From IMG/VR virus record IMGVR_UViG_3300007734_000756: a stretch of DNA of 64,000 bases; one strand, written 5' to 3'. Every line of letters begins with the position of its first letter. The stretch's first letter is position 1. This stretch comes from an uncultured virus (IMG/VR IMGVR_UViG_3300007734_000756) (taxonomy: Duplodnaviria; Heunggongvirae; Uroviricota; Caudoviricetes). Positions 22,095-58,468 of this stretch are shown one piece after another. Position numbers and translations under genes: made by a program. A model generated the notes under the pieces. The model was not told where the DNA came from. It was given only the letters and a program-made list of their open reading frames with translations, and ran no database searches.

Positions 22095-22369
22095 GCAACC
22101 TGCGACTCTATGGCGGCCAGGTTCCCGTCGAAACGGGCGACCTCACCCACCCGATCCGACTCGTTGCATTCCCGACGTTCGATCAATTCCGGGAGCTATA
22201 CGGCAATCAGGTGAAAGGCGAAAATCTGCCGAGGTATTTTCGGATGCTGACCGCACGCGCGAATGGTGCGACACTGACGGACGCAGCAAAGGCCGAGGGT
22301 GTCACAAAGGAACGCGCTCGCCAGATTGAGGCGAAATTCCTGCGGTTGATGCGACGATCACTCGCTTGA
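22091..22369 (+). CDS. Sigma-70 region 4-like HTH protein
   Basis: TLTDAAKAEGVTKERARQIEAK; GGAGG RBS. Confidence 0.7.
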   Translation: MSNLRLYGGQVPVETGDLTHPIRLVAFPTFDQFRELYGNQVKGENLPRYFRMLTARANGATLTDAAKAEGVTKERARQIEAKFLRLMRRSLA

Positions 22370-23138
22370 GTGAGTTCATTGCTTTGAACAGGCCGACCCG
22401 AACATGAAAGTCGTTGAAATCTTCACCCGTTGCTTCCGAAATCCAGTAAGGCTTACCTGTGTCTCGGGCGACCTGTTCACCCACTCCGTTAGGGTCATTG
22501 TCGGCGACGACGATGCCCCCGCTCACATCCCGCGATACCGCCTTGAGATTGCCTGCCGAGAAGGTGACAAAGATCGAGTATCGGATTTTCATCGCCTTCA
22601 TCACTGCCCGGACGGACAGGCCGGTGGCATACCCCTCGCACAAGATGGGGAGCCCCTTTGCATCCATGACAAAACTTGCCCCCTTCGTCATCTGACCGTT
22701 CAGGAACTTCTTATTCCCTTCGTTGTCGATGAGCTGGCAGCCGACGAGCTTGGTGCCCTGCCGCATCGGAACCACTAGCAGCTGGTTCCAGACGTTCCCC
22801 ATTTCATCGGGGAATCCCTTTGCGGCCAGATACGAATGGGTGGAAGGCGAAGATTGATGCAGGATCCACCCGGCCTTGGACGCAGCTTTGGCGGCCATTT
22901 CAACGCGCTCCCGGTCATCGGACACATAGCGACGCACTTCGGGCAGCGGTCGGTCGGTTTTCCACATTTCCGGGCTCTGCATCGTTGCCCAGTTTTGCAC
23001 CCAGCCAACATCTCCCAGAAACTTGTAACGCCCGTTACGCTTTCGCGGATGGTCGTCAGTTGGCACCGCAACCCACCTGCCAGGCACCAGGCCACCGATT
23101 CGCAATCCGTGTGCTCGGGCGAAGTCCTCAAACCTCAT
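22302..23138 (-). CDS. TOPRIM-domain DNA primase
   Basis: ILCEGYATG, VVADND, EDFND motifs; 3' end overlaps convergent gene. Confidence 0.85.
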   Translation of the reverse strand: MRFEDFARAHGLRIGGLVPGRWVAVPTDDHPRKRNGRYKFLGDVGWVQNWATMQSPEMWKTDRPLPEVRRYVSDDRERVEMAAKAASKAGWILHQSSPSTHSYLAAKGFPDEMGNVWNQLLVVPMRQGTKLVGCQLIDNEGNKKFLNGQMTKGASFVMDAKGLPILCEGYATGLSVRAVMKAMKIRYSIFVTFSAGNLKAVSRDVSGGIVVADNDPNGVGEQVARDTGKPYWISEATGEDFNDFHVRVGLFKAMNSLKRVIVASTAGISPQSGERVPL

Positions 23139-23959
23139 AGCGGTTCACTCCCCATGCGGGCAAGGTTGCCGCTGAACTTCCAAGTGCCAATGTGACCCAG
23201 CTGAAGATAGGGGTTCACGAAAATCTGGCCGCCGGCCTTGCGGTACTCGTTGCAGAACCAGTAATCCTCGCTCGTGTACTTGCCGTTATCGCCAACGCCA
23301 ACGCGAAAGAAGTCCCAACCGACCACACTGTTACCTTGGATCACATCCTCATAGCATGGGGTAAGCGGCATCATCTTGAGGAACACCGGCCTACGCAGCA
23401 GCAAAAATCCTGTCGCAGCGTGCGTCACCTCAATCAATCCGTCTTGCGACTCCTGGCCTTCGACGCCTCGGAACAGGTAGCTGCACGCCCAATCCTCTGG
23501 GTTTGTTTTGCCGGCCACCGCAGCTTTGGCTACCGCATCCCAATGGATTGTCTTGCGGGGGTAAACCCCCCCAACAAAGTCCTTGTCGGCGAGGATCAGC
23601 TTCAGAACGTCGTGCTCGGTAAAGCAAATGTCTGAATCAATGAACATCATCATGTCCATCGTCGCGTCTTGGATGAACGTCCTCGCCAAGTTGTTTCGGG
23701 CGCGGGTGATGAGGCTCTCATTAAACATTGCCTGGGTGTTGACCCGAAACCCCAGATTGGTAAGCAGGTTGACCGTCCTGACTAGCGAGAGGGCGAAGTC
23801 GCCATGGCACATCCCACCAAACATCGGCAGCGCGAACATGATCCCGACCTGCCGGCGCCTGTTGTCCTCCCTGATTGCATCAAACAGCATCCCCTCTAGC
23901 GATTTCTTTTTCTGCTCCTGCTGCCGCTCCAAATCTTCCCACGCTTCGTCCTCGTTCAT
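23135..23959 (-). CDS. Glycosyltransferase-like (GT-A fold) protein
   Basis: ESLITRARN, FIDSD, TGFLL, SEDYWFC, LGHIG. Confidence 0.7.
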   Translation of the reverse strand: MNEDEAWEDLERQQEQKKKSLEGMLFDAIREDNRRRQVGIMFALPMFGGMCHGDFALSLVRTVNLLTNLGFRVNTQAMFNESLITRARNNLARTFIQDATMDMMMFIDSDICFTEHDVLKLILADKDFVGGVYPRKTIHWDAVAKAAVAGKTNPEDWACSYLFRGVEGQESQDGLIEVTHAATGFLLLRRPVFLKMMPLTPCYEDVIQGNSVVGWDFFRVGVGDNGKYTSEDYWFCNEYRKAGGQIFVNPYLQLGHIGTWKFSGNLARMGSEPL

Positions 23960-25434
23960 TTGATTTTGCTCCTTGCTTTGGCCCATGCGATGTTGCGAGA
24001 CTTGATCCAATTTGCTGTTGCCAAACTCGTTGGCCTTGTAGCTTCATCTAACCCGCGCGGCCATACGCCAAACCGCTCTTTGTACTTGTGGCCGGCCCAA
24101 TGAGGGTTATAGTTTCGCTGTCGAGCGTAGTGGAGCAGCTCGGAGTAAAAGTTTTGTTTGTCGTCGCGCTTGGCTTGGCCGGTAAACAACTCGTGCATCT
24201 CACCTGCCACCGCTTCGATCTGATTGCGTCGCTGCCGGACATGGCCGCATGATGGGCAGCTGTCAGCGCCCTTCGGCCAAATGTGGCTGCATTTTGGGCA
24301 CTTGGCCTGGGTCTTTTCCTTCTCTGTCAGCTCCTTCTTGGCTCGCTCAACCCGCTTGTCTAGCTCCCGCACACCGTTGGAATAAATCTCATCCCAATCG
24401 TCTTGAAAGCGCAGGTAATTACCGCTGTGATCGAGCCACACGGCGAACTGCTTGGTGTGATGGGAGCGCATGACGCGACCCATTTGCTGGATGTGTGAGG
24501 ACAACGACTTGCTGAACGGCCTGGCCGACACGCCAATCTTCACATCAGGAACATCAAAGCCTCGCGTCAGGATGTCGGTTGCGATCAGACCGTGTATCTC
24601 AGTGTCCGGTTTCGAGAAGTCCTCAATCGCCTGCCGCTTGAACTCGTCATCATCTTTGTAGCTGATCGAGACAAAGTTGTAGCCCTTCCTGGCGAACTGC
24701 TCCACCAGATCGGCGCCGTGGGCGACGCCGGCACAGAAGACGATGGTCTTCTCGGGCTTGCCAAATATCTCGTGAGTTTTCTTGACCCATTCCTCCACAA
24801 TATCGCCAGTAATCTTCATCCCCCGCTCAGTCACAACATCCTGCGCCCACTCACCGGCAACCTTCTTGGCACCTGTCATGTCGATTTCTTTGGCAATGTA
24901 GACCTTGAGCGGCACAAGCCACTTGTTATCGACAAGCCACTCGTTTGTGGCGCCACACACCACGCGCTTGTAAACATCTCCCAGCCCCTTGGTAAAGGGT
25001 GTCGCGGTCAACCCGATGACCTTAACCTCCGGGTGCTTCTTGATAAATTCGACCGTATGCTTCCTGGCAATGTGCGCCTCGTCGATGATGAGCAAATCGA
25101 CGTTTGGCACCCCATCGCGCGCCTCTAGCGTCTGCGCGCTGCACACTTGCAAAAGTTGCTTGGGGTCGTATGCCCAGTGCTGTGCCTGAAACACTCCGTG
25201 GGGCAGCTGGTACTTGGTAAGCCGCATACTGGTCTGATCGACTAGCACCAGGCGGTCTAACACCATGGCCGCGCGCTTCCACTTGTCACGGGTGGCCTTC
25301 ATCAACGCTATCGCCACCTCCGTCTTGCCGAACCCGGTCGGCGCGTACAACAACTGTGACTGCACTCCCTCTCGAAAACCATCCCTCAGCGCATCAATGA
25401 CGTTTGATTGATGCTCTCGCAGCGACAACTCCAT
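23956..25434 (-). CDS. Superfamily 2 DNA helicase with Zn ribbon
   Basis: APTGFGKT, DEAH, TATP, QQMGRVMR, CPKC/CPSC. Confidence 0.92.
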   Translation of the reverse strand: MELSLREHQSNVIDALRDGFREGVQSQLLYAPTGFGKTEVAIALMKATRDKWKRAAMVLDRLVLVDQTSMRLTKYQLPHGVFQAQHWAYDPKQLLQVCSAQTLEARDGVPNVDLLIIDEAHIARKHTVEFIKKHPEVKVIGLTATPFTKGLGDVYKRVVCGATNEWLVDNKWLVPLKVYIAKEIDMTGAKKVAGEWAQDVVTERGMKITGDIVEEWVKKTHEIFGKPEKTIVFCAGVAHGADLVEQFARKGYNFVSISYKDDDEFKRQAIEDFSKPDTEIHGLIATDILTRGFDVPDVKIGVSARPFSKSLSSHIQQMGRVMRSHHTKQFAVWLDHSGNYLRFQDDWDEIYSNGVRELDKRVERAKKELTEKEKTQAKCPKCSHIWPKGADSCPSCGHVRQRRNQIEAVAGEMHELFTGQAKRDDKQNFYSELLHYARQRNYNPHWAGHKYKERFGVWPRGLDEATRPTSLATANWIKSRNIAWAKARSKIK

Positions 25435-25471: not shown

Positions 25472-26260
25472 TTACTTCTTCAGCTTGGCTTGCAGCGACT
25501 TCACGAGCTTCATCAGCTCTGCGTTCCGGTTCTGGAACATATCCCGCGAATCTCGCAGCGCGCGGTTGTCAATCTCTAACAACCTGATCTGCTCCCGGAG
25601 CTCTTTAATCGTTTCCTGGGCGTCGATCTTCTCAATGTCGGTAGCATCCCATTGGCCGACTGCAATCGCGTCTTTGAGGCGCTGATTTTCTTGGCTGAGA
25701 CTGCTCACCGTATCCGCGAGTTCCGTTAAGTCATCCGGCTCCTGCGCCACCTTGGTTGCAAGGTTCTCGGTGTTGACCGTGACCTTCTGGCCGTCCTTCT
25801 TGGTGTAAGTGCGCTTGACCGGAGACTGCACGCCAAGGCTGGCCTTGACCCTGCCAACAGTCATCTTGGATACGCCAACGTGACGCGCGATCTGGGCGTT
25901 CGTCCAGCTGCGACTTAAAGGATGCTCAAGCATCCGCTTGATGATGTTGCGGTTGTCCTCGTGTGTCGTAGACAAGCCGCGACGGGAGTTCGCACCAAAG
26001 GCGAACAACTGTGCTTCTTCTACGGTGCCGATCTTGATCTCGGCAAAAATGTCTGCGAGTTCCGCCTGCCGGTGTGCGTGGTATCGGTGGAATCCATCGG
26101 CCAGCCAGTAGCTGCTACCGTCATGGAACACAATGATCGCGGGGAACTTGTCGCCTTCCTTGAGGCACTCTGCGTACTGAGCAACTTGTGCTGGATCTAG
26201 AGCTACGCGCGCCTGGGTGTCTCCGTCAATACGGATCTGATCTAGGTTTAATTTTGTCAT
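25472..26260 (-). CDS. ParB/Srx-like protein with HTH and coiled coil
   Basis: TQAR...PAIIVF..WLADGFHRY; WTNAQIARHVGVSKMTVGRVK HTH. Confidence 0.8.
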   Translation of the reverse strand: MTKLNLDQIRIDGDTQARVALDPAQVAQYAECLKEGDKFPAIIVFHDGSSYWLADGFHRYHAHRQAELADIFAEIKIGTVEEAQLFAFGANSRRGLSTTHEDNRNIIKRMLEHPLSRSWTNAQIARHVGVSKMTVGRVKASLGVQSPVKRTYTKKDGQKVTVNTENLATKVAQEPDDLTELADTVSSLSQENQRLKDAIAVGQWDATDIEKIDAQETIKELREQIRLLEIDNRALRDSRDMFQNRNAELMKLVKSLQAKLKK

Positions 26261-26287: not shown

Positions 26288-27127
26288 CTAGTCGCCACAA
26301 AAGCAAGCTAGGGTTTCCTCTGATGGGTCAAACATCGTGATCTGCTGATTGGCGAACTTCAGCATTTGCGCGTAACTCGGCCTGTCCTTGTGGAAGTAAC
26401 CCCCTTGTGCGATTTTCGGGTTGGTGATGCTGCCCTCCTGCTTGGCCCACCAGATGGCACGCTCTGGCTTCTCCGCAATCAAGGACATGATTTGGTGCGC
26501 CCCCTTGAGGAAGCAAAGGTCGCAGTTGCCATGGAACGTGACCCCGTTGATGTTGGGGAGCTGCAAGTCAAAGGTTTGCGATGACCAGAACTTGGATATG
26601 TCCTGCTTTGAAATCCCGTCTGTTGCCAGTGGCAGAAGCCGAGTCACCCCCTTTACTCCGTCCGATGGGTTTGCCCGAATCTTGGCTACCCGTCTTGGCT
26701 CGTCAGCGCGGATGCCAATCAGGTTGTCCCATTCGTCCCACCCGAGGTGCCTGGCGTACTTGGCCAGCGGTTTGATTTTGAGGTCTACCGTGCAGAAGCG
26801 CGTTACCGGGTTGGGCAGGTAGTTTTTCTTCTTGATGAGCGCCTCAAACGGTTCACCGTTCCGGCTGGCCGACTCAAAGGTCACGATGCGCCACCCCGGA
26901 TCCTCGATCTGATACTCCAGCCAGATAATTGGCACTGACCACTCTTTTGAGCAGCGGTCAACGAACTGGAGCGTCGCCTCATCCTCTTTGCCTGTGTTGG
27001 CAAAGCAAACATGAGCGCCGTCAGGAAGGCCGCCATTGGCCTCCAAAACGCGCCACAGCATATAGGCCGAAGTGCGGCCACCGGAGAAGCTGACGAAGGT
27101 CTGCTCTGTAATTTTGTATGGGTTCAT
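26288..27127 (-). CDS. PAPS-reductase-family (PP-loop) protein
   Basis: SFSGGRTS, FANTGKE, RFCT, GIRADE, GNCDLCF, CFCGD. Confidence 0.8.
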   Translation of the reverse strand: MNPYKITEQTFVSFSGGRTSAYMLWRVLEANGGLPDGAHVCFANTGKEDEATLQFVDRCSKEWSVPIIWLEYQIEDPGWRIVTFESASRNGEPFEALIKKKNYLPNPVTRFCTVDLKIKPLAKYARHLGWDEWDNLIGIRADEPRRVAKIRANPSDGVKGVTRLLPLATDGISKQDISKFWSSQTFDLQLPNINGVTFHGNCDLCFLKGAHQIMSLIAEKPERAIWWAKQEGSITNPKIAQGGYFHKDRPSYAQMLKFANQQITMFDPSEETLACFCGD

Positions 27128-27783
27128 GCAGGCACCTTGTAGTCGTGGAACACCGTCCCACTTGACGGGTCGCCTACTCTACAAGGTTTGACCCAGACCT
27201 TCTTTGTTTTGATCGTGCGCCAATGGCCTCGACGGTCGTGCGCTCGGGGGCTGGCGTGAGTACCACCCAGAGGCTCTCCTTTTGGCCTGGGTAACACTGT
27301 TACTGTTCGCCAATCGTAGCTCGGCTTCTTGCCTTGCGCGATCTTGCGCTTGTTGGTGAACGATTGCTTGACGGTAGGCTGATACGCCGTTTGCTGCGTT
27401 TCTAGCCTCCCCAAAAGAGTCTGGATGATTCCCAGTGCCATCATCGTCGTTTGCTGCTTTGTAGCTCCTTCCGGGTAAACGCCGATGCCCTCATCCTTTT
27501 CCATGTAAACGAATGGATTGATGTCGATCATCGTGTCGCCAAACACAAAGCCCACCACGCTGATTTGTTCGCCAAGGACAGACTTAAGCTGGAACGCTGC
27601 CCTGACTAGCACTCGGCGACGCCCAGCCCTGGCCGCCACAAACACCACATCGTAGGGCAGATGCACCATCAGCTCGGGATCGAGCACGAAGTCGATGGCT
27701 TCAGGGACTTCGCCCAAGTCAAACCAGTAGCCGGCCTCTGGATCGGGCGTCACCCGCGCCAGCTCAGCGATCAGCGGCGTCAT
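27124..27783 (-). CDS. Hypothetical protein
   Basis: GGAGG RBS; GGTHASPRAHDRRGHWR motif. Confidence 0.7.
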   Translation of the reverse strand: MTPLIAELARVTPDPEAGYWFDLGEVPEAIDFVLDPELMVHLPYDVVFVAARAGRRRVLVRAAFQLKSVLGEQISVVGFVFGDTMIDINPFVYMEKDEGIGVYPEGATKQQTTMMALGIIQTLLGRLETQQTAYQPTVKQSFTNKRKIAQGKKPSYDWRTVTVLPRPKGEPLGGTHASPRAHDRRGHWRTIKTKKVWVKPCRVGDPSSGTVFHDYKVPA

Positions 27784-27849
27784 CTAGCCTCCCCGAGTAA
27801 CACCTGTTACTCCCCTGTTGTGACATGATACCCGTACCCGGTCATCTCA

Positions 27850-28265
27850 TGACTCAGTAGCCTTCAGGTCGCCCAAGGGGTGGAGCGCAGCCCATCCCCC
27901 GCCCCAGCGGCACTTAGGTCGTGCAGCCCAGGCTACCCGGAGGCAGCGATTCGTTCATCACAGGCCTTGTCTACCACCCTTGTACCTGTGACTACTCCAG
28001 TCCCTCGCTGACAGGCTGGATACGGACAACCGGGGGTGTACGGTGCCGTGTGTTTCCTTCCGCGCAGCCCATTCAGGCTCTTGATCTCGCTCGGAGTGCG
28101 GGTAAGTCGGCACCAAAAGAAAAACCCTCATGGGGGAAGGCTTTAGGCTTGGTTGCCGCCCCTTGGTTGGTCTAACCACCTTCCAAGTGCTTTGACGAAG
28201 CCTGCCCGCATGAGGGTTCAGGATCGCAGGTTAGTGCTTTTACCGGATTACCAGCCCGGCAAGTG
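27850..28265 (-). ncRNA. Putative long structured non-coding RNA or origin region
   Basis: No credible ORF; upstream consensus promoter; multiple stems incl. 28123-28218; boundaries approximate. Confidence 0.5.
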
Positions 28266-28270
28266 GTTAA

Positions 28271-28300
28271 ATCTTATCAAGCCGCTTCAAGGCTTGTCAA
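28271..28300 (-). promoter_or_regulatory. Sigma70-type promoter
   Basis: TTGACA-18-TAAGAT with TG extended -10. Confidence 0.7.
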
Positions 28301-28371
28301 GTGCCGGTCTTTCCCGGCTGCCAACTAGCCCCCATCTTGAGGAGACTAACCTTCACAGGGTGGAGATGTGA

Positions 28372-28917
28372 CTAGCTGCCGGTGTTATTGGCCACCTCCG
28401 GCTGGGCAAACTCCGAGAGCAATCGTACATCAAAAACGAAGCTCTCCTTGGCGTTGCCACCCGTATCACTGATACGCCGCTGGTATCGAATCTTCTGGAC
28501 GCCGGCTGCCTTGATCGCTCGACGAATGTCAGACAGGAACCCGGCATACGTCCTGTGCATGGGCTCCACCTTCTTGTCGTTCCACTCGGTCACATCCCAC
28601 TTCACATCAAAGATCACCAAGATGTTGGGATACAGCTTGGCATATCGCTGGCCATCTTTGACGTTGAAGGTCACTGTGTACTGCGGATCCAGCCCGTAAA
28701 GTTCCCGCGCCATGAACAGCGGCGTCCTGACGGTTTTGAGATCCGATGGCACCGTCACAAACAGATCGTGCGCAAACGGATCGTCGTCCTTCTCTATGTT
28801 TATACCGCCCGAGAACCCGAACTTTCTCAGTCGCCTGGCAAACTCCACCTCCGCCTTCGCGCCGGCCTCGCACCAGGCGGCCTTATCCTCGGTCGGTAAG
28901 TGCTCTGACCACATCAT
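28372..28917 (-). CDS. Putative PD-(D/E)XK-fold nuclease
   Basis: E...HDL...DLKT spacing; likely start MMWSEH. Confidence 0.45.
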   Translation of the reverse strand: MMWSEHLPTEDKAAWCEAGAKAEVEFARRLRKFGFSGGINIEKDDDPFAHDLFVTVPSDLKTVRTPLFMARELYGLDPQYTVTFNVKDGQRYAKLYPNILVIFDVKWDVTEWNDKKVEPMHRTYAGFLSDIRRAIKAAGVQKIRYQRRISDTGGNAKESFVFDVRLLSEFAQPEVANNTGS

Positions 28918-29146
28918 TAAGCACCGATAGCTCGGTCTTCTTGGCGACGTTCCACATGGCTCGCCGGCCATGGATCCCGTTGTGACTACCTTGATGACAG
29001 TCCTTACACAACGGAATGCACAGGTAGTGCAACCCCTGCTCGATGTGGTGCGCGTCCGAGGGCGCAGCTGCTCCACACACACCACATGGCAGGGACTTCA
29101 CGGCGGCAAGATGATCGCGGTCGCGGTCTGACAGTTTGCTACGCAT
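28883..29146 (-). CDS. Zn-binding HNH-like (DUF968/Ref-like) protein
   Basis: LPCGVCG...DAHHI...IPLCKDCHQG..GIH. Confidence 0.7.
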   Translation of the reverse strand: MRSKLSDRDRDHLAAVKSLPCGVCGAAAPSDAHHIEQGLHYLCIPLCKDCHQGSHNGIHGRRAMWNVAKKTELSVLNDVVRALTDRG

Positions 29147-29478
29147 CAGTCATCGTACCCGCGAGCATGGGGATAGCTTGTTTGATATGTGCTCGTTGGC
29201 CATACCGCCTTGGGGACGACACGCTCAACTGGCCGCTCAACTGGCCGCTCAATAACTTGCTCAACAGGCTGAGCCTCGGGCTCGTCGCCTAATTTCTTTG
29301 ACCAGACAATCTGTCCTTTAACCTGATCCCGGTTCAAATACCCAAACTCATACAACATCCTGAGGTACGTCGTCGCAGTAGACCGCGCCATGGAAAATTG
29401 ATACGCCACAACCTTGGCTGTCACAGGCTTCTTGCGCTCTGATACAAACTTCAATACTCGTTCAGTTTTTGGACTCAT
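29146..29478 (-). CDS. Winged-HTH protein with PVER repeats
   Basis: VTAKVVAYQFSMARSTATTYLRML; 12-bp tandem repeats near 29222-29268. Confidence 0.6.
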   Translation of the reverse strand: MSPKTERVLKFVSERKKPVTAKVVAYQFSMARSTATTYLRMLYEFGYLNRDQVKGQIVWSKKLGDEPEAQPVEQVIERPVERPVERVVPKAVWPTSTYQTSYPHARGYDD

Positions 29479-36073: not shown

Positions 36074-36427
36074 ATGAAACCAATCCAATTGCTTCTGCCG
36101 TGGCCGCCGAGCGTCAACCATTACTGGTTGTCTCGGGGCAATGCCCGTTTCATCGGCAAGGCTGGCAGGGCGTTCCGCCAGGCCGTAGCTGAAGAATGCG
36201 CCGGCCAGGAGGTGATGGCGCTAGAGGGACGGTTGGCTGTGTATGTGTCTCTGTTCCCGCCCGACAAGCGGGCGAGAGACATTGACAACATCTTAAAGGC
36301 GTTGCTCGATGCTTGCGAGCACGCCGGCTGTTACACCTCAGACAATCAAATCGACGAGCTGCACGTCGTGCGGCAGGGCGTCCAGAAGGGCGGTCACTGC
36401 ACCGTTGTGATTGTGCCCATCACCTGA
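36074..36427 (+). CDS. rusA: Holliday junction resolvase RusA
   Basis: LPWPPSVNHYW, PPDKRARDIDNILKALLDA, DNQID. Confidence 0.92.
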   Translation: MKPIQLLLPWPPSVNHYWLSRGNARFIGKAGRAFRQAVAEECAGQEVMALEGRLAVYVSLFPPDKRARDIDNILKALLDACEHAGCYTSDNQIDELHVVRQGVQKGGHCTVVIVPIT

Positions 36428-39400
36428 AAATCTCCCTGCGGAGCTCTTTGACAGGCTCAAGGATGTCGAGCTTGATCCTGCGAAGTTCGTCCATCTCTTG
36501 GCGGCGTTCTTTCGGGGACAGGTCTTTGGAGCGTGATTCACCAACACGACGGATTTCCTTGTTGATGTCCGACAGCTCATCTTCTGTGCGGTTGATGTAT
36601 TGATACATTCCGACAATATCGCCATGCTTGTCGAGGTAAGCGTCGGCAGCATCAAAGTCTTCTCGATCAATCATCTTGTTCCACGTCTTGTACTTCTCAA
36701 AGACTTCCTTCTTAAAGTCGTAGAACAAATCCTCACGTCCTCGGGGGATGTCCTCCCTCAAGAATCCGCCGATCACCGGAGTTTCCCTAGCGGTGGGTTC
36801 GGGGCGGGTTTCTGCAATCACTCCAATCGAGTTCGATGCCCACTGGGCCATGGCGCCCGCAGAGCCAAAAATACCGCGCACCAAATGATCCGCTTCAATC
36901 GGGCTGAGCATCCGCTTGTCATCCGTTCCGGGGATTGACATCAGTGCGCTAAGTGCCTTGCCAAGCTCTGAAGTAGAGGCTGTGTATTGCTCCGCCGCCG
37001 CAACATCCTTCAGCCCCTCCGGGATCACCGTGCGGCCTGTGTAGAAGTTGCGATCAAGCAGCACCTCAAGCACCGGCTTCACGCCGGCAGGCACCGGCTC
37101 CGGCCCAAGCAGCATATCTCTGGCGGCATCAGCCAATGCTTTCCGAACGCGGCGCCGATCTAGCTCGTTCTCCGTTCCCTCTCGGGTAACGGTGTTATAA
37201 ATCAATTCTGGAATAGCCTTGAAGATGAACGCGGCTGATGTATTCATCGGCATCATAATCTTCGTGCCTGGGATCATGACGTTTCGCAGCTTGGTCTGAT
37301 CATCTAGTTCGTCATACTCGGGGTCTGCGCCGGCCAACATACAGTAGAGCAGTGTTGCCCCGGTAAGCAACCCCGTAGTAACTCCAAGCCTCAACAAAGC
37401 CTTCTTCCGGCTTACACCTTTAAGCCCGCTGCCAGCCAAAGCTCGGATCAGCACATCGGATGAGTTGAGATAGGCGCCCATAAAGGGAACGACCTTAACC
37501 ATAGCCTGTGCATATCCCGCCGACCCATGATGAAGGAAGTTAATGACGTTAGCCGCTCGGTACAGGGCTTGTGTCTCGTCGCCCGTTTCTTTCAACACGC
37601 GCTTATACGTCGCCACCCGCTGGGCCATATCTGACGAATCGCCGATGTGATCGAGCCCCTTGATCACAAAGTCAAAGATGTTCCCGTTCATGATCCCAAG
37701 CCGACGCTTGATCTCTGCCTCTGGAGTTCTTGCAGGGCTATGGAAGCCACCAATGCCCGCTGCCTTGAGAATATCCACGACCGGATCGGTATTGGTGAGA
37801 CTGGTAAGGAACCCCTTCCAGACACCACCAATCAGCGCGAGCGGGTTTTTGACGCCCGTCACCAAGGCCGCCGTGGGAGCGTCTTTAAACACCTGCTTGA
37901 TCTGGAATGCGCCTGACAAGGTGATGCTTCGGCGGGTAAGGTTGGCCACTGCGGCGAGCGGCGCCCACATCCTGAGGTTGATGTTGTCCATCCCGTAGAT
38001 AGCCTCGGCCACCAGAGGATCGGAAATCTCAACCACCACCTTCTTGCCGTTTACTATCCAGTTGAATCGACCCTTAGGCCTATCTACGGAGGGGTAAGTC
38101 ATTACCTTCCCCTTCTCGTTTCTGGTGGCGTACTCCAACACAATACGGTTGGCCGCAAACTGGCGCAGACCATTCATCGTCATCCGCATGACGTTGCGCG
38201 TCATGTTGTCGATGATGTTCTGAATCTCCCGATTGGTCTTAAACACAACCAAATCGTTCTCGTTCAACTCAAGATCAAGTCGCACATCTCCTTCCGGGGT
38301 TGTCGTCACCAAAGAGGGGTCTACTTGCTTGCCGTTGACCTCCACTTGAACCACAGAGGACGGTTGAATCTTGAAGTCTGTTTGCCCTTGTGTGGCCCGG
38401 AAATCCACCACCGCAATCGGTCTGCCGCGCTTGAATAACTTTTCCCTGCCGATGTTGGTCATCGTCCGCGTGGTGGACTGTATTTCCGACTGGTCATGGA
38501 GATCCTTCTCGTCGTCCATGATCCGATACCACGGCACATAGTCCTTAATGGCGGCCAGCGTTTCGTATCGGCCTTGCGACAACAACCCTACTTGTCTCCA
38601 GAACTTGAGCAGGTTCTGATTGATCGCAGTCCAGTTGTCCATGATGGTTCTAAGCTCTGGATACTCCTCTTCCAAAGCGGCGAACTCATACATCTCTTCC
38701 TCTGACATATTGACCGAGGATGCGGCCTTTTTGATTGACGCCACTTCCTGCTCGGCTTGCTCCACGGCTTCTTTGGCCATGGCTATTTCATCCGGCTCCG
38801 CGCCCATGCTTTGCAACAGATCCCGGCGCGCCTTAGCTGCATCAAGAGCGGCCTCTCGGGTGTACAGCTCGGTCATGATGCTGATGGAGCGTTTGGCCTC
38901 TAGGTAGCCTTGGATGGTATCCGTGCCCAGCTGATCGCCAATCCTGTCCTTGAGCGCCTTCTCGGCTTCGTAGACGCCGCGCATCCCCATGTCTCGTTCA
39001 ACGGCCACAAAGTTTCTGGCTTTCTCGTTGAACTCAATGCCGCCTCGGAAGATCACCTCGGTGCCGATGTTGCCGCCACGAATGGCGTTGTCTAGCGCAA
39101 CCGATGCCGTGGCGAACCCGTTCGATGTTTTGAGGGCGCCGTTGTATTGCGCAAAGTCCCTTGCTTCAAGACCTGATCCGTACCAGATGTTCTGGTTGCG
39201 CATGGCGATGAGGCCATTAATAACATCATTGCCCACCATGCTGGGGTTGGCCGCCGCCTCCTTAAAATACTCTTTGCCGTTCTTAAACTGTTTCGTGACA
39301 AAAGTTGTGATGGGCGTTGTATCCAACATCGGCGTGTTGGGGCGGCTGTACTTCTCCTTCAGGTTCTTGGCCGGTTCAATATTGTTGAGCGTAACAAACT

Positions 39401-42400
39401 GCGATCCGTCGCCCACGGAACTCATCACAATGTCCACCAGCGTTTCGCGGGTGATGCGCTCTTTGCTGCCCTTCATGACCTGGCCAAACACCCGATGTAC
39501 GTCGTACTGATTGTCGAACCCAAGAACTTTCTTGAGTCCTTCAAACAGTTGTTGCACCGCGCGCTTGAACCGATCCCATGCAGTGCCAAGCTGCGATGCC
39601 ATCAAGCGCTCAGCATTCACCGCCCAGTATTCAGAGGGGTTGATGAACTGGTACATCTCGTAGCCAGGCAGAAGCATTTGTGCGTTGTTCAGCGTCCTCT
39701 GGCTTGGGTTGTCCAGGAACTTTAGAATTGCGTCGAAGTAACGCTGATGCAGCTCATCCGGGTTTTGCTTAATCGCTCTGGCCAGCGCCTTGCCCCAGGC
39801 TTGAACAACAACCATCCGCTGCTCGGGCGTCATCATCTGCTCAAGCGCGTGCGAAAGCTCGTGACGAATGGTGCGCGGCTCATAAGTACCGGAGGTGGAT
39901 TTGTACAGGTAGACAATCCGCCGCATCGGATCAAAGCTACCGACAGCCTCTCCGGCCCCCTTGCGAACACTTAGCAGCAACCCATCGAGCAGCTCGGGTT
40001 GCTTGCCATACGCGGCCTGAATGACATCAAGCACATCTTTGTCGATGTTGCCCTTGTCGTACTCTTGTAGCGCCTTGGCAAGAAATGCTTCCGGTGTATC
40101 TACGCGGGGCTTGCTTGCTTTGATGGCCGATTGCAACTCCCGCGACTTCTGCATCATCTCGGTGGTGTTGCGCTGGACATCAATGTCCACTTCACCTTCG
40201 GCAACCTTCTTGGCCACGCCAGCAAGTTTTTTGCGTAGCGCGGCGTATTCTTTGATCTGATACTCGCGGACAGCTTCGCGGCCAACAATCAGCTCACCCT
40301 CGCGCGTCATCAGAGAGGGTTCTGGAGCAGCAGGGCGCCCGATAACGTCGTAGAGGAAGTCTTCCTTCCTGCCATACGTTACCCCTTTGGCAAGGATCAT
40401 GTTGCCGATCTGAATGACTTCATCAGCGGCCACCACCGGCATCGTCGAGCTGCGGTCAAAGAAATAAGCGTGGCGCGTTGGATCGAACCCAACCTGCACC
40501 CAATCGCCGGACAGGATGGCATCGTCCGCCATCTGATACGCCTGATCCGCCGTGATGGGAACGAAGGTGCCCTCCATGGTTTGGATGGCATCTTTGGCGG
40601 AACCTGCGGCGATCTTGAGCGCCTCTCTTTGATTCCCAAGGCCAAAGGTGACGTTCTTGATTGAAGCCGCGCTGCTGTATCCAATGACCTTACCAGGCGA
40701 CGATGGAGTGCGCTTCTCGTGGATCGATACCACAAACACTCCGGCGCGATTGAATGCCGGAATGTCTAGGCGCAAACCAACCGGGTAGCCCGCCGGAATC
40801 TTGGGATCAATCTTATCGCGCTTGGCGGAGTCCAGGGCGTTATAAACCTGTTCTGACGTAGCCGGCTGCAACGGCGCAAAGTACACCGGAATCGGCCTAT
40901 AACGGTTGACCAGCTCGTCAAACTTCTGAGCGGTGATCTCCCCGCGCTGAAGCTGTTGCGCGGCCTCCGCGAGCTCCGGTGAACGCCCCGGCGGCAGCTT
41001 CTTTTTCTCCGGGATGTTCATGAGCTTGACGCCCTGCTGAGCCTCCGCAGCGCGCAGCATCACTTCTCGATCCCAGAATCGCCCATCCTTCAGTTCAAAC
41101 TGGCCGGTCACAGGGTCAAGCGTGAGAACCTTCTCTTTAATCAGCTTGCCCATGGCAGCATCAGCTTGCTCCTGGGTGAGCTTGAACTGATTCATCGCCG
41201 CCTTGCGGAAGCGAGTCGCCGCATTCATCATGCGCTCGCCCATGACGGCAGCGCCTATCCCTGGTGCGGTCGGCTCAATAGCTGCTGGCCCGCCGGTGGC
41301 TTTCTCAATGTACTGCGCAAAGGTTTCGTTTGGCAGATACTTGCGCGCCTGTAGTTGCTGAAAGAACCGGCGCAGCTGAATGCCAAGACGTTTGAAATAT
41401 TTCTCTACGATGGTAACTGGCCGTGCAGAGGATAGCGCCCACCTTGCCGTTTGATCTGCATACCACTCTCCAAACATCCTCCAATAATTGGATAGCTCGT
41501 TGGATTGCATACCTTCTCGCACCGGCACCGCTCGCCCCGTAGACCTGGCGCGCATAGAATCAATCATCTCTCGCGCGGTCTTGCCTTTCTGCGACTCTAA
41601 CCACTTTTTGTGCGCATCACGCAGAGCGTCTTTTTCTTCTTGCGAAGCACGGTCATAGAACAAACTCTGATGCACATGACCCATTTCATGTGCAATCGTT
41701 TCCAGCATCTTGGTCGTACTGGTGCTCTTGTCAAACAAGATGTAGTAGCTGGAGTCCGGCATCATGCGCATCGAGCCCAGATCGTTGGCATTTAACGTGC
41801 CGGAACCAATCGCGCGATGCGGGCCTGTAAAGTTGTTGCGGTTTGTGCGCGCGTCCTCAATGGTCGATACATAGATTGGAACGTCGAGCTTTAGAAGCGA
41901 CTTCCATTCCTTGATGACCCCGGCCAGCTGCTCTGGGATGTCTTGCGACATTGCAAGGCCGTCTTGGAAGGTAATAAATGGCGCAGCGTTGTGCTTTTCT
42001 GCTGCCTCAGCTTCCAGTCTCTTTTTAACGTCGATCATCTCCTGTTTAACGTCGTCAGACACCAACCTATCGGACAAGGATTCAATGTCTATTCTGGCGC
42101 GGGTATCGCCAGCCGTCGCTATATACACAGGAGCGCCAGATAGACGGGCGTAGCCACGAATCAGCGCGTTATCGCCTCGTTGCCAAACAATCTCTCCGCC
42201 AAGCTCTTTGGCATGAACCTCGGCGTTTTTGCGTTGTTCTGGCGTGTATTGCTCTTCTTCTGGCACAACCACAGACCGCTGGCGCACCAACACCACTTCG
42301 ACTTGTCGCTGCGTCGGCGCTAGGCCGCGCGCCGTCATGGCTAGAACGGAGCTTTCTTCTGGAGTATCCACCAGCTGAATGCTGTACTTCTGGCCGCGCT

Positions 42401-45400
42401 TCATCGGAGTAGCGGTGGCCAATTTCGCCAGTTCATCAAATTCCGCGCGTGAAATGGCTCCTTGCCACTCGGCGGTTTCTGTTTTGACCTGACCGCGCTC
42501 GCTATCTTCGTACTGAACCGCCTGTTGCTGCTCGTCAAGCAGAGCGGTGTATTTGCCAACAACATCACTTTCCGCAGGCTCTTCCGTCGGGATCGACTGA
42601 AGATAGTTGTTCAGCTGTTGACGCTGCTCGCCGATGCCGCCAGAAGTAACATTGATACTCGCCGTGCTTGGGATGCGGCCAGCATTCACCAAGTCTGCGA
42701 CAGCAGCGCGCATGACCTGCTGATACTCTTTGCCACCAACAATCAGAACGTCCTGGATGTTGGTCGGCCACGTTACCTTTGCCAGTTCTGCGCCCAGGTT
42801 GGAGAGCATCTCCTTGGCCCGCGTCGGCGTCATCACCTGATCGTATGGCTCAATCTCTTGAGTCGGATCGATGAACCCATGCTTGGCCGAAAGGATGATG
42901 ACGTTTGGCTGCGCTCCTGGCTTGACGTTGCTGGCAAACGATTGGAAGAAGACGCCTTTGTACAGCTCCATCGCGGGCGCGGCCTTGGCTCCTTTCTTTG
43001 CGCAGCATGGCATCAGCACTAAACGATTATCTGCTGGCAGATCAGCCGGAGGAGTTTCGTTGTTGACTACCGTATCGGCGGTAACACCCGTTACTCCTTG
43101 CGCCTTCTCATACGCAATCAGTTCGCGGCGGCGTTTTAGCTGCGCCGGAGTAAGCTCTTTGCCGGGATCGCGCTCTGATTCCTTCAACTCTTTGCGCGCC
43201 AACCGGATGTTCTCTGGCTCTTTCGCGGCCCTCTCGGGAACCACCGTGGTGACCAAGCGCGAATACTTGGGCGGCGTTTGATCCGTGCCAAGCGACTTCA
43301 GTTCGTTCTTAATCCGCCAAATGTTAAGCGGGATGTTGAACCCTGTAGCCACCTCTACGATGCGCCCAAACCTATACTCGGCAAGGTCTTGCGGGTCTTT
43401 GCTTACCGCAAGATATTTCTCTCTGGCCTCTTGATTTGCTGGCGACAGCTTCGGCTCGGGCGCTGCTTCACCAAGCTCCATTTGTCCACGGGCTGCGGCC
43501 TCGTCTGCCGCGCGATCACTACCCGTAAGCACAAAGTCACCACGCGCCTCATCGGCCTTTGCTTTGCGCTCGGCTTCAGCAGCTTCTTGCGCGCGCCTGG
43601 CGTCCGCTTCTTCTTTGGCTCGGATGTCTTCCGGGGTGGGTGCGGTGAGCAGGTCTTCGTCAAACAAAGACGGCCCAGCTGGTGGCTCTTCAACGATAGT
43701 GGGCGCAGGGGGCGCTACACCACGGGCAGCGCGGATCTCGGCCACAAGATCAGGGCTGGTTGACCAGTTGTCCCAGGCGGTCTTGCGCCGCTTCAGCTCC
43801 TCGATGCGACGCTTGATGGCTTCTGGATCGCGGACATCAATACCCTCTGCCTTGGCCAGCGCCGGGTTCTTGGCTGCACCGCTGATGGCAGAAAGCCGTG
43901 TCTGAATCTCGCGTTGCTTTTGAGATGCGATCTTGGCCATCTCTTCGGCTTCGCGGATGGCACTATCGTCAAAGCCAAACATATCTAGCGTGGTGTCGGT
44001 TTCGCCAGCCAGAGCTTTGACTGCCTGCATCATGTTCGTGGCGGTGTTCATGGACTTGCCGTCCTGAATCGCCTTGATGCCTACGCTTTGCAAGCGCGCG
44101 TCGCTGGGTGCATTTAGCGCGATGTAGAACGCGGCCTCATCCCCGATTTGGTCGGCACGAACTGCGGCAATGAGTTCATCGCTTCCTTGAGTTGCGATTG
44201 CGTAAGACCGCTTGCCCGTAGCCCTCGCCAGAAGGCCTCTTGCGTCGGCATCTTGCTTGGTGATGCCGCTTTCTTTGAAGTAATTGACATAATCTTTTAC
44301 CTTTCCTTGGCCATCACGAATGTTGAGTTCTGCGTCCAGGATGGAGGCTTGCAGCTTATTGAACCCCTTGGCCTCGTCGTGGATCTGCGCGGGAATGGTT
44401 GTCTCGCCGCTGCGCTTGGCCAGATCAAACCTGTGCCGGCCAGAGATGACCTCTAGCGACCCATCAAGCCTGCGCCAAACTTGAATGGGCGCAACCCCAG
44501 TGCGCTCAAACTTTCCACCAAGTGGCTCAACAATCCCCTCGGCAGTGGCGCCAATCTTGAATTGCGGCACGTCTTCGGAGAGCTTCAGCTGCGTCAGCGG
44601 CACCTCGACCGTTGGCATCCCATCGGCTTCCAGGTCTACTGTCGCCGGCTCAAACTCCTTGGGCTTGGCGATCGGTGCGACCGTTGGCGTTTCAGGAAGC
44701 CTGGCCGCTGCTTGGGTCGGCGTGAATGTCGGAGTAACAGGTGTTACTTCCTGCGTAACTTCAGTTACAGGTTTGGTTACTTCTTCCGTAAGGGTAACAG
44801 GTGTTACTGGTTCATCCGGCGGTTTGGCGGCGGGAGTAACGGGTGTTGCTTCAAGCTCTTCTACCTCTTCCCCGGTAGGCATTCCGGGGATCGCCGCTAC
44901 GGGTCGAGTAACAGGTGTTACACCCTTTGGCGCGGGGGCGGGTGGCGGAGTGGGTTCTGGCGCCCCGGCTTGCGGTGCCTCGCCCTCTTCTGGCGGCCCC
45001 AGGCGCGGTTCTGCGCGGGCAGTGACCGGGATCTCGCCGGCAATCGTCGGTTCTGCTTTCTCGGCGGCCTGAGCGACCTCTCCAATCGTTGGCTCGGCGC
45101 GACCCGCCGGCGGAGCGACTTCCCCTACCGATGGCTCTGCGGGTTCAGTAGACGGAGGCTCGGGAAGCGTTCTGGCCAGCTCTGCTATGGTCGTTGGGCG
45201 GATGCCAGCAGCTGCCGCAGCACCCTCTCTGCGAATGCCTTCGCGGGTGAAGTCCGTTTCCGCGACGCCGGACTCAATGGCTTCAGCGATCTGCGCTTCG
45301 CGGGTCGCTGCTCGCGCTTGACGTAGGGCGGCGGCAACGTCTACCGGAGCGGTAACGCCCTCGGCAATTCCTTCAAGCAATACCTCTGCGGGTTTGTTTT

Positions 45401-57515: not shown

Positions 57516-57986
57516 CTAACCCCGTAGATAAAACGCCCGTTCGTCTTTTCTTCTTGTAACCAGCCCCGGTAGCACTTTACCCGCCGACAAGTTCCACTTC
57601 AAGAACTCCTCAGCCGCCCCCCCAAAGTCGCCCCGGTTGTGTTTGGCCCGAAGGGTAGACGCCTGAAGGTTCCCTAGTCCAACGTTGAAAGCGAACGAAG
57701 TGAGTGCCAGATGGCGAGGGCTAAGATCATCCACAGTACATAGTCGGCGTACCCCCGCCAGAAACCGCGCCAGATCCTGTTGGAGAATGCTGTCAACCTC
57801 TTCATCCGTCAGCCTCCGATCCCAACCGGCAGGAATGGCGAGGCCAAGTCTTGCATCAAACGGTACGCGCAGGTGAGCAGGATCGATAACGTGACCAACA
57901 CCGACAGTCCACAGACGAGCAGGGCAACGGTAAGGCTCATGCTTAACCCCTTCATGATGCCGAAGCATCTTGATTAACTCTTTCAC
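57516..57986 (-). CDS. Endolysin, GH24 lysozyme
   Basis: HEG...YRCPA..WTVGVGH, SFAFNVG, GLVTRRKDE; GTG start overlapping upstream stop. Confidence 0.9.
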   Translation of the reverse strand: MKELIKMLRHHEGVKHEPYRCPARLWTVGVGHVIDPAHLRVPFDARLGLAIPAGWDRRLTDEEVDSILQQDLARFLAGVRRLCTVDDLSPRHLALTSFAFNVGLGNLQASTLRAKHNRGDFGGAAEEFLKWNLSAGKVLPGLVTRRKDERAFYLRG

Positions 57987-58468
57987 TGCTTTGCTTTGCA
58001 ACCATCAAAGTGATACCGCCGCATATTGCCACCGCCGCCTTCAAGCCCGCAATGCGGACACTTCACAATCTGCCGCTTACCTTTACACGCCTCGCTGAGC
58101 CGCGTCGTAAACTCTGGGTCTGCTAATCGCTTGGCCGCGCCCTGAAGGTATGGTTCGCGCTGACGCTTAATTCCAGTCGCCCCATCCACGCTCGGAGCCT
58201 TGTTGTAAAGCATATCCAGCCCTTGCCGCAACAACTCAGCTTCTATGGCACGCGCCTCTTCAACCGTCCCGGTTTCCTTGACAACAACAAACTCAAACCC
58301 GGATATGCCGTATTTTTGGGCGTCTTCTGCGTAGCCTTCGTAATGCCGAAAATTGGCGCAATTGATGGCGCATCGGTGATTCCGCAGCCGAAGCTCTATC
58401 TGGCTAGAGCTTCCTATGTATCGCTTACCGTTGTGTTTGTTGACAACGGCATAGACCCCGATGGTCAT
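57983..58468 (-). CDS. GIY-YIG homing endonuclease-like protein
   Basis: GVY...YIGSS...R...YN; C-terminal CPHC. Confidence 0.85.
   Translation of the reverse strand: MTIGVYAVVNKHNGKRYIGSSSQIELRLRNHRCAINCANFRHYEGYAEDAQKYGISGFEFVVVKETGTVEEARAIEAELLRQGLDMLYNKAPSVDGATGIKRQREPYLQGAAKRLADPEFTTRLSEACKGKRQIVKCPHCGLEGGGGNMRRYHFDGCKAKQ

Follow-up and report, generated by a model that had tools for sequence, protein, structure and literature searches.

The T4 origin ori(uvsY) is a transcript-opened R-loop origin that combines a promoter with an unwinding element and is not known to have a conserved ornate fold, and the primer RNA of the ColE1 plasmid carries a G-tract. As outlined in excerpts of the literature, the folded ColE1 transcript makes a persistent R-loop, and the helicase goes onto the strand thereby displaced (PMC5043065; R-loop also in PMC8683028), the MRB replicons of Vibrio plasmids have a structured replication element and no Rep protein (PMC3035462), the PAGEV, ARRPOF, and GEBRO motifs are structured elements of 223-349 nt in replication regions (PMC5737381), and lambda keeps its origin inside gene O, where O bound to iterons opens an A+T-rich region and P serves as the loader (PMC5043065).

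The present analysis concerns a 64,000-nt stretch of DNA from an uncultured virus (IMG/VR record IMGVR_UViG_3300007734_000756; Caudoviricetes), hereafter the window, which represents most of a ~64-kb tailed phage with terminase, portal, and capsid genes. Its replication-type genes encode ERF, an exonuclease, an SSB-like protein, and, on the minus strand, a ParB-like protein with an HTH (25472-26260), an SF2 helicase (23956-25434), and a Toprim_3 primase (22302-23138). No polymerase or O-like initiator was matched among the scanned ORFs of the window, a set that excludes a 3399-aa ORF (36420-46619, minus strand) and most virion ORFs. A gap at 27784-28371 stands ahead of the minus-strand replication operon, and in a crude ATG-ORF test no internal gap of the window is longer than 27784-28352, in line with the first-pass annotation, which had described the longest gene-free stretch here and suggested that it held an undescribed noncoding RNA or an RNA-primed origin used by the primase and helicase. 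Among the late genes, a GIY-YIG homing endonuclease gene (57983-58468, minus strand) adjoins 57516-58001.

The conserved RNA and its fold

The gap contains a core RNA of ~238 nt (27866-28101, minus strand) that is conserved across hundreds of uncultured phage contigs, including many freshwater bacterial viruses. Homologs of ~28107-27841 were present in 59/155 viral loci fetched via the ParB-like and helicase proteins, and a DNA pattern derived from the core returned at least 120 matches in viral contigs and at least 120 in metagenome contigs; among the matches listed, a profile confirmed 119/119 new viral loci and 116/120 metagenome loci, the latter yielding no RNA boundaries. The pattern matched 10 contigs of bacterial genomes, of which the profile confirmed four, all MAG contigs with mixed labels that do not thereby establish a host; the remaining 6/10 were rejected because the profile did not confirm them. 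Exactly one match was found in 41/44 records searched whole (two in 2, none in 1), and 23/23 near-complete virus records carried a match. The 174 full-length copies were reduced to 101 non-redundant sequences at 93% identity, with a mean identity of 57%. The record nearest to the window does not contain this region.

The Rfam search that had been proposed for this region gave no window match at gathering score (Rfam 15; best E 1.6), and in 38 further loci no family fell on the element. A blastn search of the window element against cultured phages returned just a 27-nt match upstream of the core, a homolog (L002) had no match among 72,556 plasmids, searches with L473-type elements found no match, and a model of the 5' domain run against 151 genomes from the order of a Burkholderiales MAG matched once, in that MAG itself. 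The RNA was nowhere described in our literature search, and the excerpts of PMC5737381, PMC3035462, PMC8683028, PMC5043065, PMC10690425, and 10.64898/2026.09.22.753630 contain no description of it, with the proviso that it may be among the ~10,000 unnamed candidates of PMC10690425 or be listed in the supplement of PMC5737381.

Structure was scored on 78/101 homologs, the 23 with long inserts being excluded. Compensatory changes are seen in some 15 helices, of which six are pseudoknots, and each of the top 18 mutual-information pairs is at least 91% canonical. The 65-pair structure is 93.6% paired (vs 73.2% when shuffled and 30-42% when slid), with a covariation of 0.523 vs 0.171 in the control, figures that the controls flatter since the 65 pairs were picked from the same sequences on which they were scored, whereas individual pairs are unambiguous (for one example, CG 30, GC 27, AU 11, UA 8). 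Every helix pairs in the window sequence, and covariation among homologs, proposed for testing at first pass, is evident, with both sides changing in 50/65 pairs. Within pairs, G-U outnumbers A-C by 500 to 66, and GNRA loops number 18 on the sense strand vs 0 on the opposite strand, the conserved GNRA and UUCG loops being on the sense strand; the G-U excess and the sense-strand GNRA loops fix the strand and favor RNA, while GNA triloops (10 on the opposite strand vs 0 on the sense strand) point weakly against an RNA reading.

All six frames contain stops in 70/101 homologs, and lengths modulo 3 are evenly distributed (31/33/37); these counts, with the pairs that change on both sides, led us to reject a protein-coding element, and the check for a translated ORF revealed no conserved frame. 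A hidden gene or a chance structure would find some support in a 73-codon frame (27958-28179, minus strand) that overlaps the element in the window and in the folding energy of the single window sequence, which is no better than shuffles (z -1.59 in one test; +0.35, minus; +1.19, plus) and leaves significance to come from the homologs only; we assign it a negligible probability given the stops, lengths, and compensatory changes above. Compensatory covariation and the lack of a conserved frame strongly support a structured noncoding RNA, as first proposed, and this is very likely a real, new RNA class with no Rfam family.

The fold, all on the minus strand, begins with a 5' domain (28050-28100), a three-way junction of P2, P2b, and P3 with two covarying pseudoknots, one joining the 5' end (28100-28098) to the P2b loop (28090-28088) and one joining the P3 loop (28074/71/70) to the AAACAC linker (28050-28052). 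P4/P4b (28022-28049), with a near-invariant ACACCCC loop, leads into the P5 region (27944-28020), in which P5 (28020-27996) has an invariant bulged A and a loop pseudoknot (28010-28005/27949-27944) and which also includes P6 (27992-27984/27965-27957). The stems recognized at first pass, TCACAGG 27958-27964/CCTGTGA 27985-27991 and 27996-28005/28013-28020, correspond to P6 and P5, respectively, and covary strongly. The P6 loop docks over long range onto the 3' end (27874-27979) through two helices, GGGUGG 27979-27974 with CCACCC 27883-27878 and CAA 27969-27967 with UUG 27876-27874, CTA/TAG variants being visible by eye; the flanking pair is A-T in 44, G-C in 50, and a mismatch or wobble in 5 of 99 homologs. 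The sixth crossing lies in the P7 region (27901-27943), comprising P7, a lone pair (27940:27929), a pseudoknot (27933-27930/27904-27901), and a variable hairpin, P8. Invariant unpaired bases lie within this compact multi-pseudoknot core. A switch exchanging GGUG between the P4 loop and the 3' CACC was rejected, the flanking base not covarying with the loop copy, as was pairing of leader positions 28166-28156 with the 3' end, which by eye is absent in homologs.

Two further features from the first pass are present in the window yet are not general. The repeat GCGCAGCCCAT occurs at 27885 and 28062, with a 10/11 copy at 27920, but an exact internal 11-mer repeat was found in 1/101 homologs and is attributable to chance; the minus-strand G-run is at 27905-27891, but at least 11 G in 15 nt occur in 8/101 homologs and a run of at least 5 in 20/101.

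The ~55-nt 5' domain is also joined to unrelated 3' domains: of 119 loci recovered with the 5'-domain pattern, 41 score poorly over the usual 3' part; many of these are divergent members, and some are plainly of another kind. The domain was detected in the cultured Ralstonia phage RSP15 (31 bits) and gave no match in regions of AP1, YA3, PS-1, ctsTn925, and ENT39118. We also observed at least three to four further types of 3' domain on the same 5' domain (L138, L445, L473, L509; L320, L444, L458, L500, L117; L411, L451; L310), some of these elements starting right after a primase stop codon and finishing in G-rich tracts; L473 is a provirus.

Promoter, leader, and flanks

A sigma70-like promoter, TTGACA-18-TAAGAT (28271-28300, minus strand), points into the element as first annotated, though taken alone it is at chance level (1 found vs 0.9 expected). 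Sense promoters lie within 260 nt upstream in 29/82 homologs vs 2/82 on the other strand, and an antisense promoter was found in 0/82 loci with enough flank, as judged by 10/12 sigma70 matches in the core plus 120 nt upstream, a threshold below which weaker promoters are undetectable. Upstream of the core, and often behind a promoter, is a variable leader of ~120 nt, "RNA A" (28115-28265, minus strand), whose sequence varies between phages while its layout is kept and which ends like an intrinsic terminator. In the window it consists of a 5' hairpin (28262-28240), a long stem (28218-28198/28143-28123), and a U-run (28124-28115), and inspection by eye shows complementarity between the sequences of the 5' hairpin and the 3' arm. 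A hairpin plus U-run lies 11-107 nt (mostly 11-37, about 20 nt) upstream of the core in 76/99 homologs; a T-run lies downstream in only 9/99, so the core has no 3' terminator of its own. The leader (28265-28115; also L001, L030, L170, L187, L223) had no Rfam match and seems to be an unlisted family in its own right, its 5' hairpin and 3' arm appearing to covary.

The 3' flank (27790-27865) carries CANRTG-type boxes and the GTAACA/TGTTAC palindrome, located at 27795-27812, that had been reported to close the region. In 39 homologs of the ParB/helicase type the boxes number 39 vs 10 expected, and the palindrome is found in 9/39 of them vs 1/43 others; boxes and palindrome are probable binding sites for a protein, perhaps one with a ParB-like HTH. 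The flank is A+T-richer than its locus in 78/83 cases, and no GC-skew switch was seen at the element.

Transcription of the element is hinted at by freshwater RNA libraries that were seen as contigs and give neither strand nor ends. Contigs of run X6 cover 27540-28077 and nothing else of 26800-29200, those of run X5 cover most of the stretch with none at 27775-27965, a gap that proves nothing in contigs, and runs X7-X9 cover small shares that carry no weight as evidence. One 55-nt X6 contig fuses opposite strands (27880-27904/27981-28010) at a 5-nt microhomology with a depth of 2 and is probably a reverse-transcription fold-back artefact.

Several other small elements were observed around the cassette. 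A short motif resembling Proteo-phage-1 (28374-28407, minus strand; E 4.2) lies at the end of the upstream ORF, this stretch alone being common to many unrelated contigs, and a similar GCCGG/CCGGC hairpin (28318-28303) immediately precedes the promoter. Extra small RNAs lie between leader and element in L169, L222, L173, and L176, two of them C4-like and one tRNA-like by eye, none reaching the Rfam gathering score, and type II hammerhead ribozymes lie 2.5-2.9 kb upstream of the element in L295 (464-523) and L350 (3983-4042).

Gene context and headless initiators

Among the 83 loci with flanks, the RNA stands before ParB-like/helicase genes in 39, the ParB-like gene being its commonest neighbor, and between scaffold and major capsid genes in 15 (the capsid group, podophages of the G002-G004 type), with varied settings in the rest. 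No protein family is common to all 20 RNA-bearing genomes (two of them partial); a primase is carried by 7/20 and a helicase by 8/20, which speaks against the earlier proposal of an origin tied to this primase and SF2 helicase. A new promoter lies directly downstream of the RNA in 15/15 capsid-group loci and 14/67 others; in the capsid group (L163, L170, L171, L182, L205) its -35/-10 boxes are good and lie 15 or 19 nt apart, and a conserved structured leader lies between it and the capsid start.

In several small podophages the O-like protein consists of the C-terminal domain only (headless), and in G037 the order is a cro-like gene, the RNA, a 96-aa O C-terminal domain, and a P-like loader. 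No HTH-bearing O-like gene was found among the scanned ORFs of G007, G008, G018, G019, G028, and G037, which were chosen subsets (101/129 in one set, 68/156 in another, plus a further set). In G034 a weak 104-aa HTH match may represent a split initiator, in G033 a full initiator and DnaB lie ~5 kb from the RNA, and in the capsid group an HTH-bearing O-like gene lies 7-10 kb from it.

Initiator homologs were then considered from the protein side, being fetched by protein alone, with the RNA sought within 3.5 kb and five truncated loci set aside; the queries were headless proteins adjoining the RNA, which is a bias, and the best 80 of 559 matches were kept. Among the matches listed, a same-strand copy of the RNA preceded 22/23 C-terminal-only but 0/37 full-length members of one initiator family, and 30/61 vs 0/16 of a second, the non-redundant counts at an earlier stage being 8/9 vs 0/13 and 13/35 vs 0/12. 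At least three copies of a 10-mer occurred in the 330 nt before the domain in 14/16 and 22/31 full-length loci vs 6/56 and 0/19 headless ones, headless loci thus being mostly without iteron-like repeats. On the tree, the full-length label needs three changes, one of them forced, and the headless state may have arisen independently just two to four times.

The same slots are filled by Betaproteobacteria-1 (RF02932), an orphan motif found before ParB-like/helicase genes, before headless O, and after the primase in Acidovorax phage AP1; its family model gives no window match even with E values as high as 10 allowed. Among the matches listed, it was carried by 21/31 headless loci without the core RNA; of 80 ParB-like loci, 46 had the core RNA, 23 Betaproteobacteria-1, 11 neither, and 0 both. 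Within the flank examined, 42/75 helicase loci had neither RNA, and such loci imply that other solutions or undetected classes exist. In protein trees the two RNAs swap repeatedly, even between near-identical proteins (L603/L606), and starred branches force at least five to six changes of Betaproteobacteria-1, counts that loci with neither RNA inflate. The RF02932 model matches eight slot-mate loci and spans ~120 of ~230 conserved nt. We observed that the RNA runs ~110 nt past the Rfam model (L065, L592, L599, L605, L614; AP1 L559, 10362-10620) and that the extended form shows alternative pairing and repeats its 3'-end sequence internally. A direct-repeat signal in this type of RNA (8.32 vs 6.71 shuffled; 33/45 parsed) was discarded owing to imperfect anchoring and because it is partly alternative pairing. 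Our literature search, whose scope did not extend to the supplement of the describing paper, found no paper on the motif's function. Further structured-looking fillers lie upstream of a headless initiator in L610 and in Pseudomonas phage PS-1 (L561, 7378-7992), neither with an Rfam match.

Origin model, rival readings, and known systems

The element is a single-copy, strand-specific, noncoding multi-pseudoknot structure with a promoter and a terminator-ended leader on its 5' side and a flank of higher A+T content on its 3' side, in the place that the DNA-binding half of O and the iterons occupy in lambda-like phages. It replaces the origin-binding domain and its sites, and the simplest reading is thus that it does their job. 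We lean, by somewhat more than even chances, toward a replication origin module that works through RNA, opening the DNA to a headless initiator or a helicase-primase. The RNA would arise when transcription passes the leader terminator, to an extent limited by alternative pairing within the leader, and its fold would maintain a persistent R-loop that leaves the duplex open at the RNA's 3' end. As a speculation, the P6 loop might pair with the displaced non-template strand CCACCCCTTG, which has the same sequence as the 3' end of the RNA, an identity that leaves covariation unable to decide between the two partners; a loop pairing divided between two short helices would be apt for a strand that has no free ends, and the repeat shared by loop and 3' end is barely above shuffles (7.24 vs 7.08). 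A headless O C-terminal protein and a P-like loader would load on the opened strand, their place being taken in the window by the ParB-like protein, SF2 helicase, and primase, and synthesis would be primed by the RNA 3' end or by primase, such that a ColE1-style R-loop route might feed a lambda-type loader. An HTH initiator is present in the capsid group and in G033, at a distance from the RNA, which counts against an origin, as do the small number of independent events, the query bias, the helicase loci with neither RNA (42/75), the lack of a GC-skew switch, and the lack of antisense control or a conserved G-tract; the capsid-group RNA might serve as an additional or a late origin, or else be free-standing.

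An unlikely alternative is that the RNA is free-standing and acts in trans, as a ribozyme or as a scaffold binding the headless initiator or helicase, expressed from an early promoter and not marking an origin. The compact core with its invariant unpaired bases, the promoter right at the RNA's 5' end in RSP15, L469, and L476, the separate downstream promoter in all capsid-group loci (15/15), and the capsid and terminase contexts would all fit such a molecule, whereas the terminator that usually precedes it (76/99), its lack of a 3' terminator (T-run in 9/99), and the absence of a protein partner common to the 20 genomes do not, and headless loci being mostly without iteron-like repeats, the origin must lie somewhere. 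A cis-acting transcription element, such as a processive antiterminator or an attenuator heading long operons, appears improbable: it would agree with a position that is always co-directional and upstream of an operon, behind promoter and terminator, and with X6 RNA contigs that extend from 28077 into the next gene, but a new promoter directly after the element in 15/15 capsid-group and 14/67 other loci is at odds with it, and it explains neither why the RNA accompanies headless and not full-length initiators nor why iterons were lost.

Known single-stranded DNA initiation sites are simple hairpins. A structure formed in single-stranded DNA, serving primosome assembly or lagging-strand initiation, would go beyond them with six pseudoknots, and the conserved G-U pairs, the sense-strand GNRA and UUCG loops, and, weakly, the RNA-library cover also argue for RNA. 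In its favor are the location in a gap between terminator and promoter, the opposite-strand GNA triloops (10 vs 0), and the poor separation of RNA and single-stranded DNA motifs by computation noted in excerpts of PMC5737381; we regard this reading as still less probable than the transcription element.

Returning to the origin reading, a broader and decidedly tentative extension of it is that many freshwater tailed phages have swapped protein-based DNA recognition at a lambda-type origin for exchangeable folded RNAs (the core class, Betaproteobacteria-1, and further unlisted classes) that open their own template by gripping the displaced strand with split loop helices and hand it to a headless initiator or helicase. 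At the least, the locus provides a new, abundant, and ornate RNA class with about six pseudoknots in 240 nt, suited to structure work, and its gene context gives an orphan RNA a specific testable function that applies also to the orphan Betaproteobacteria-1 motif. If the origin reading is true, RNA-opened replicons, known from two plasmid families (PMC3035462), would also occur broadly among tailed phages, a hybrid replicon would keep the protein helicase-loading half and drop the DNA-binding half, and the start of replication in phages without a recognizable initiator, like that of the window, would be explained.

Comparison with described systems places the element beside, not within, each of them. 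Flaviviral xrRNAs have a three-way junction, a 5' end that is paired back, and a loop-to-downstream pseudoknot, and the topology of the 5' domain resembles theirs by analogy; the element has no Rfam match. Like lambda, G037 keeps the cro-O-P order and the O C-terminal domain; unlike lambda, the N-terminal DNA-binding half of O and the iteron-like repeats are missing, with the RNA in their place, and a lambda-type iteron origin was rejected because the element is noncoding and the adjacent initiators are headless and mostly without repeats. The MRB, PAGEV, ARRPOF, and GEBRO elements are likewise Rep-less or replication-region structures of similar length, from which the element differs in being phage-borne, without an Rfam or plasmid match or an evident RNA I. 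With ColE1 RNA II/RNA I, as described in excerpts of PMC5043065, it shares a long folded RNA with a promoter some hundreds of nt before it, and perhaps the lack of an origin-binding initiator, no O-like or polymerase match having been found among the window ORFs scanned and relatives keeping a headless O or, in some, a full one; it differs in lacking sequence or Rfam similarity, an antisense RNA I promoter (0/82), and a conserved G-tract, and these phages keep helicase-loading proteins. The RNA-primed origin suggested at first pass is thus supported indirectly by gene context, while the ColE1-type version, with antisense control and a G-tract, was rejected for want of an antisense promoter, of homology, and of a conserved G-run (at least 5 in 20/101). 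An RSP15 homolog of the 5' domain lies behind a promoter and upstream of a uvsY-like gene, as at T4 ori(uvsY), which is not known to have a conserved ornate fold like that of the element. If the origin reading is right, the element would work much as the transcript-opened origins of ColE1, MRB, and T4 do.
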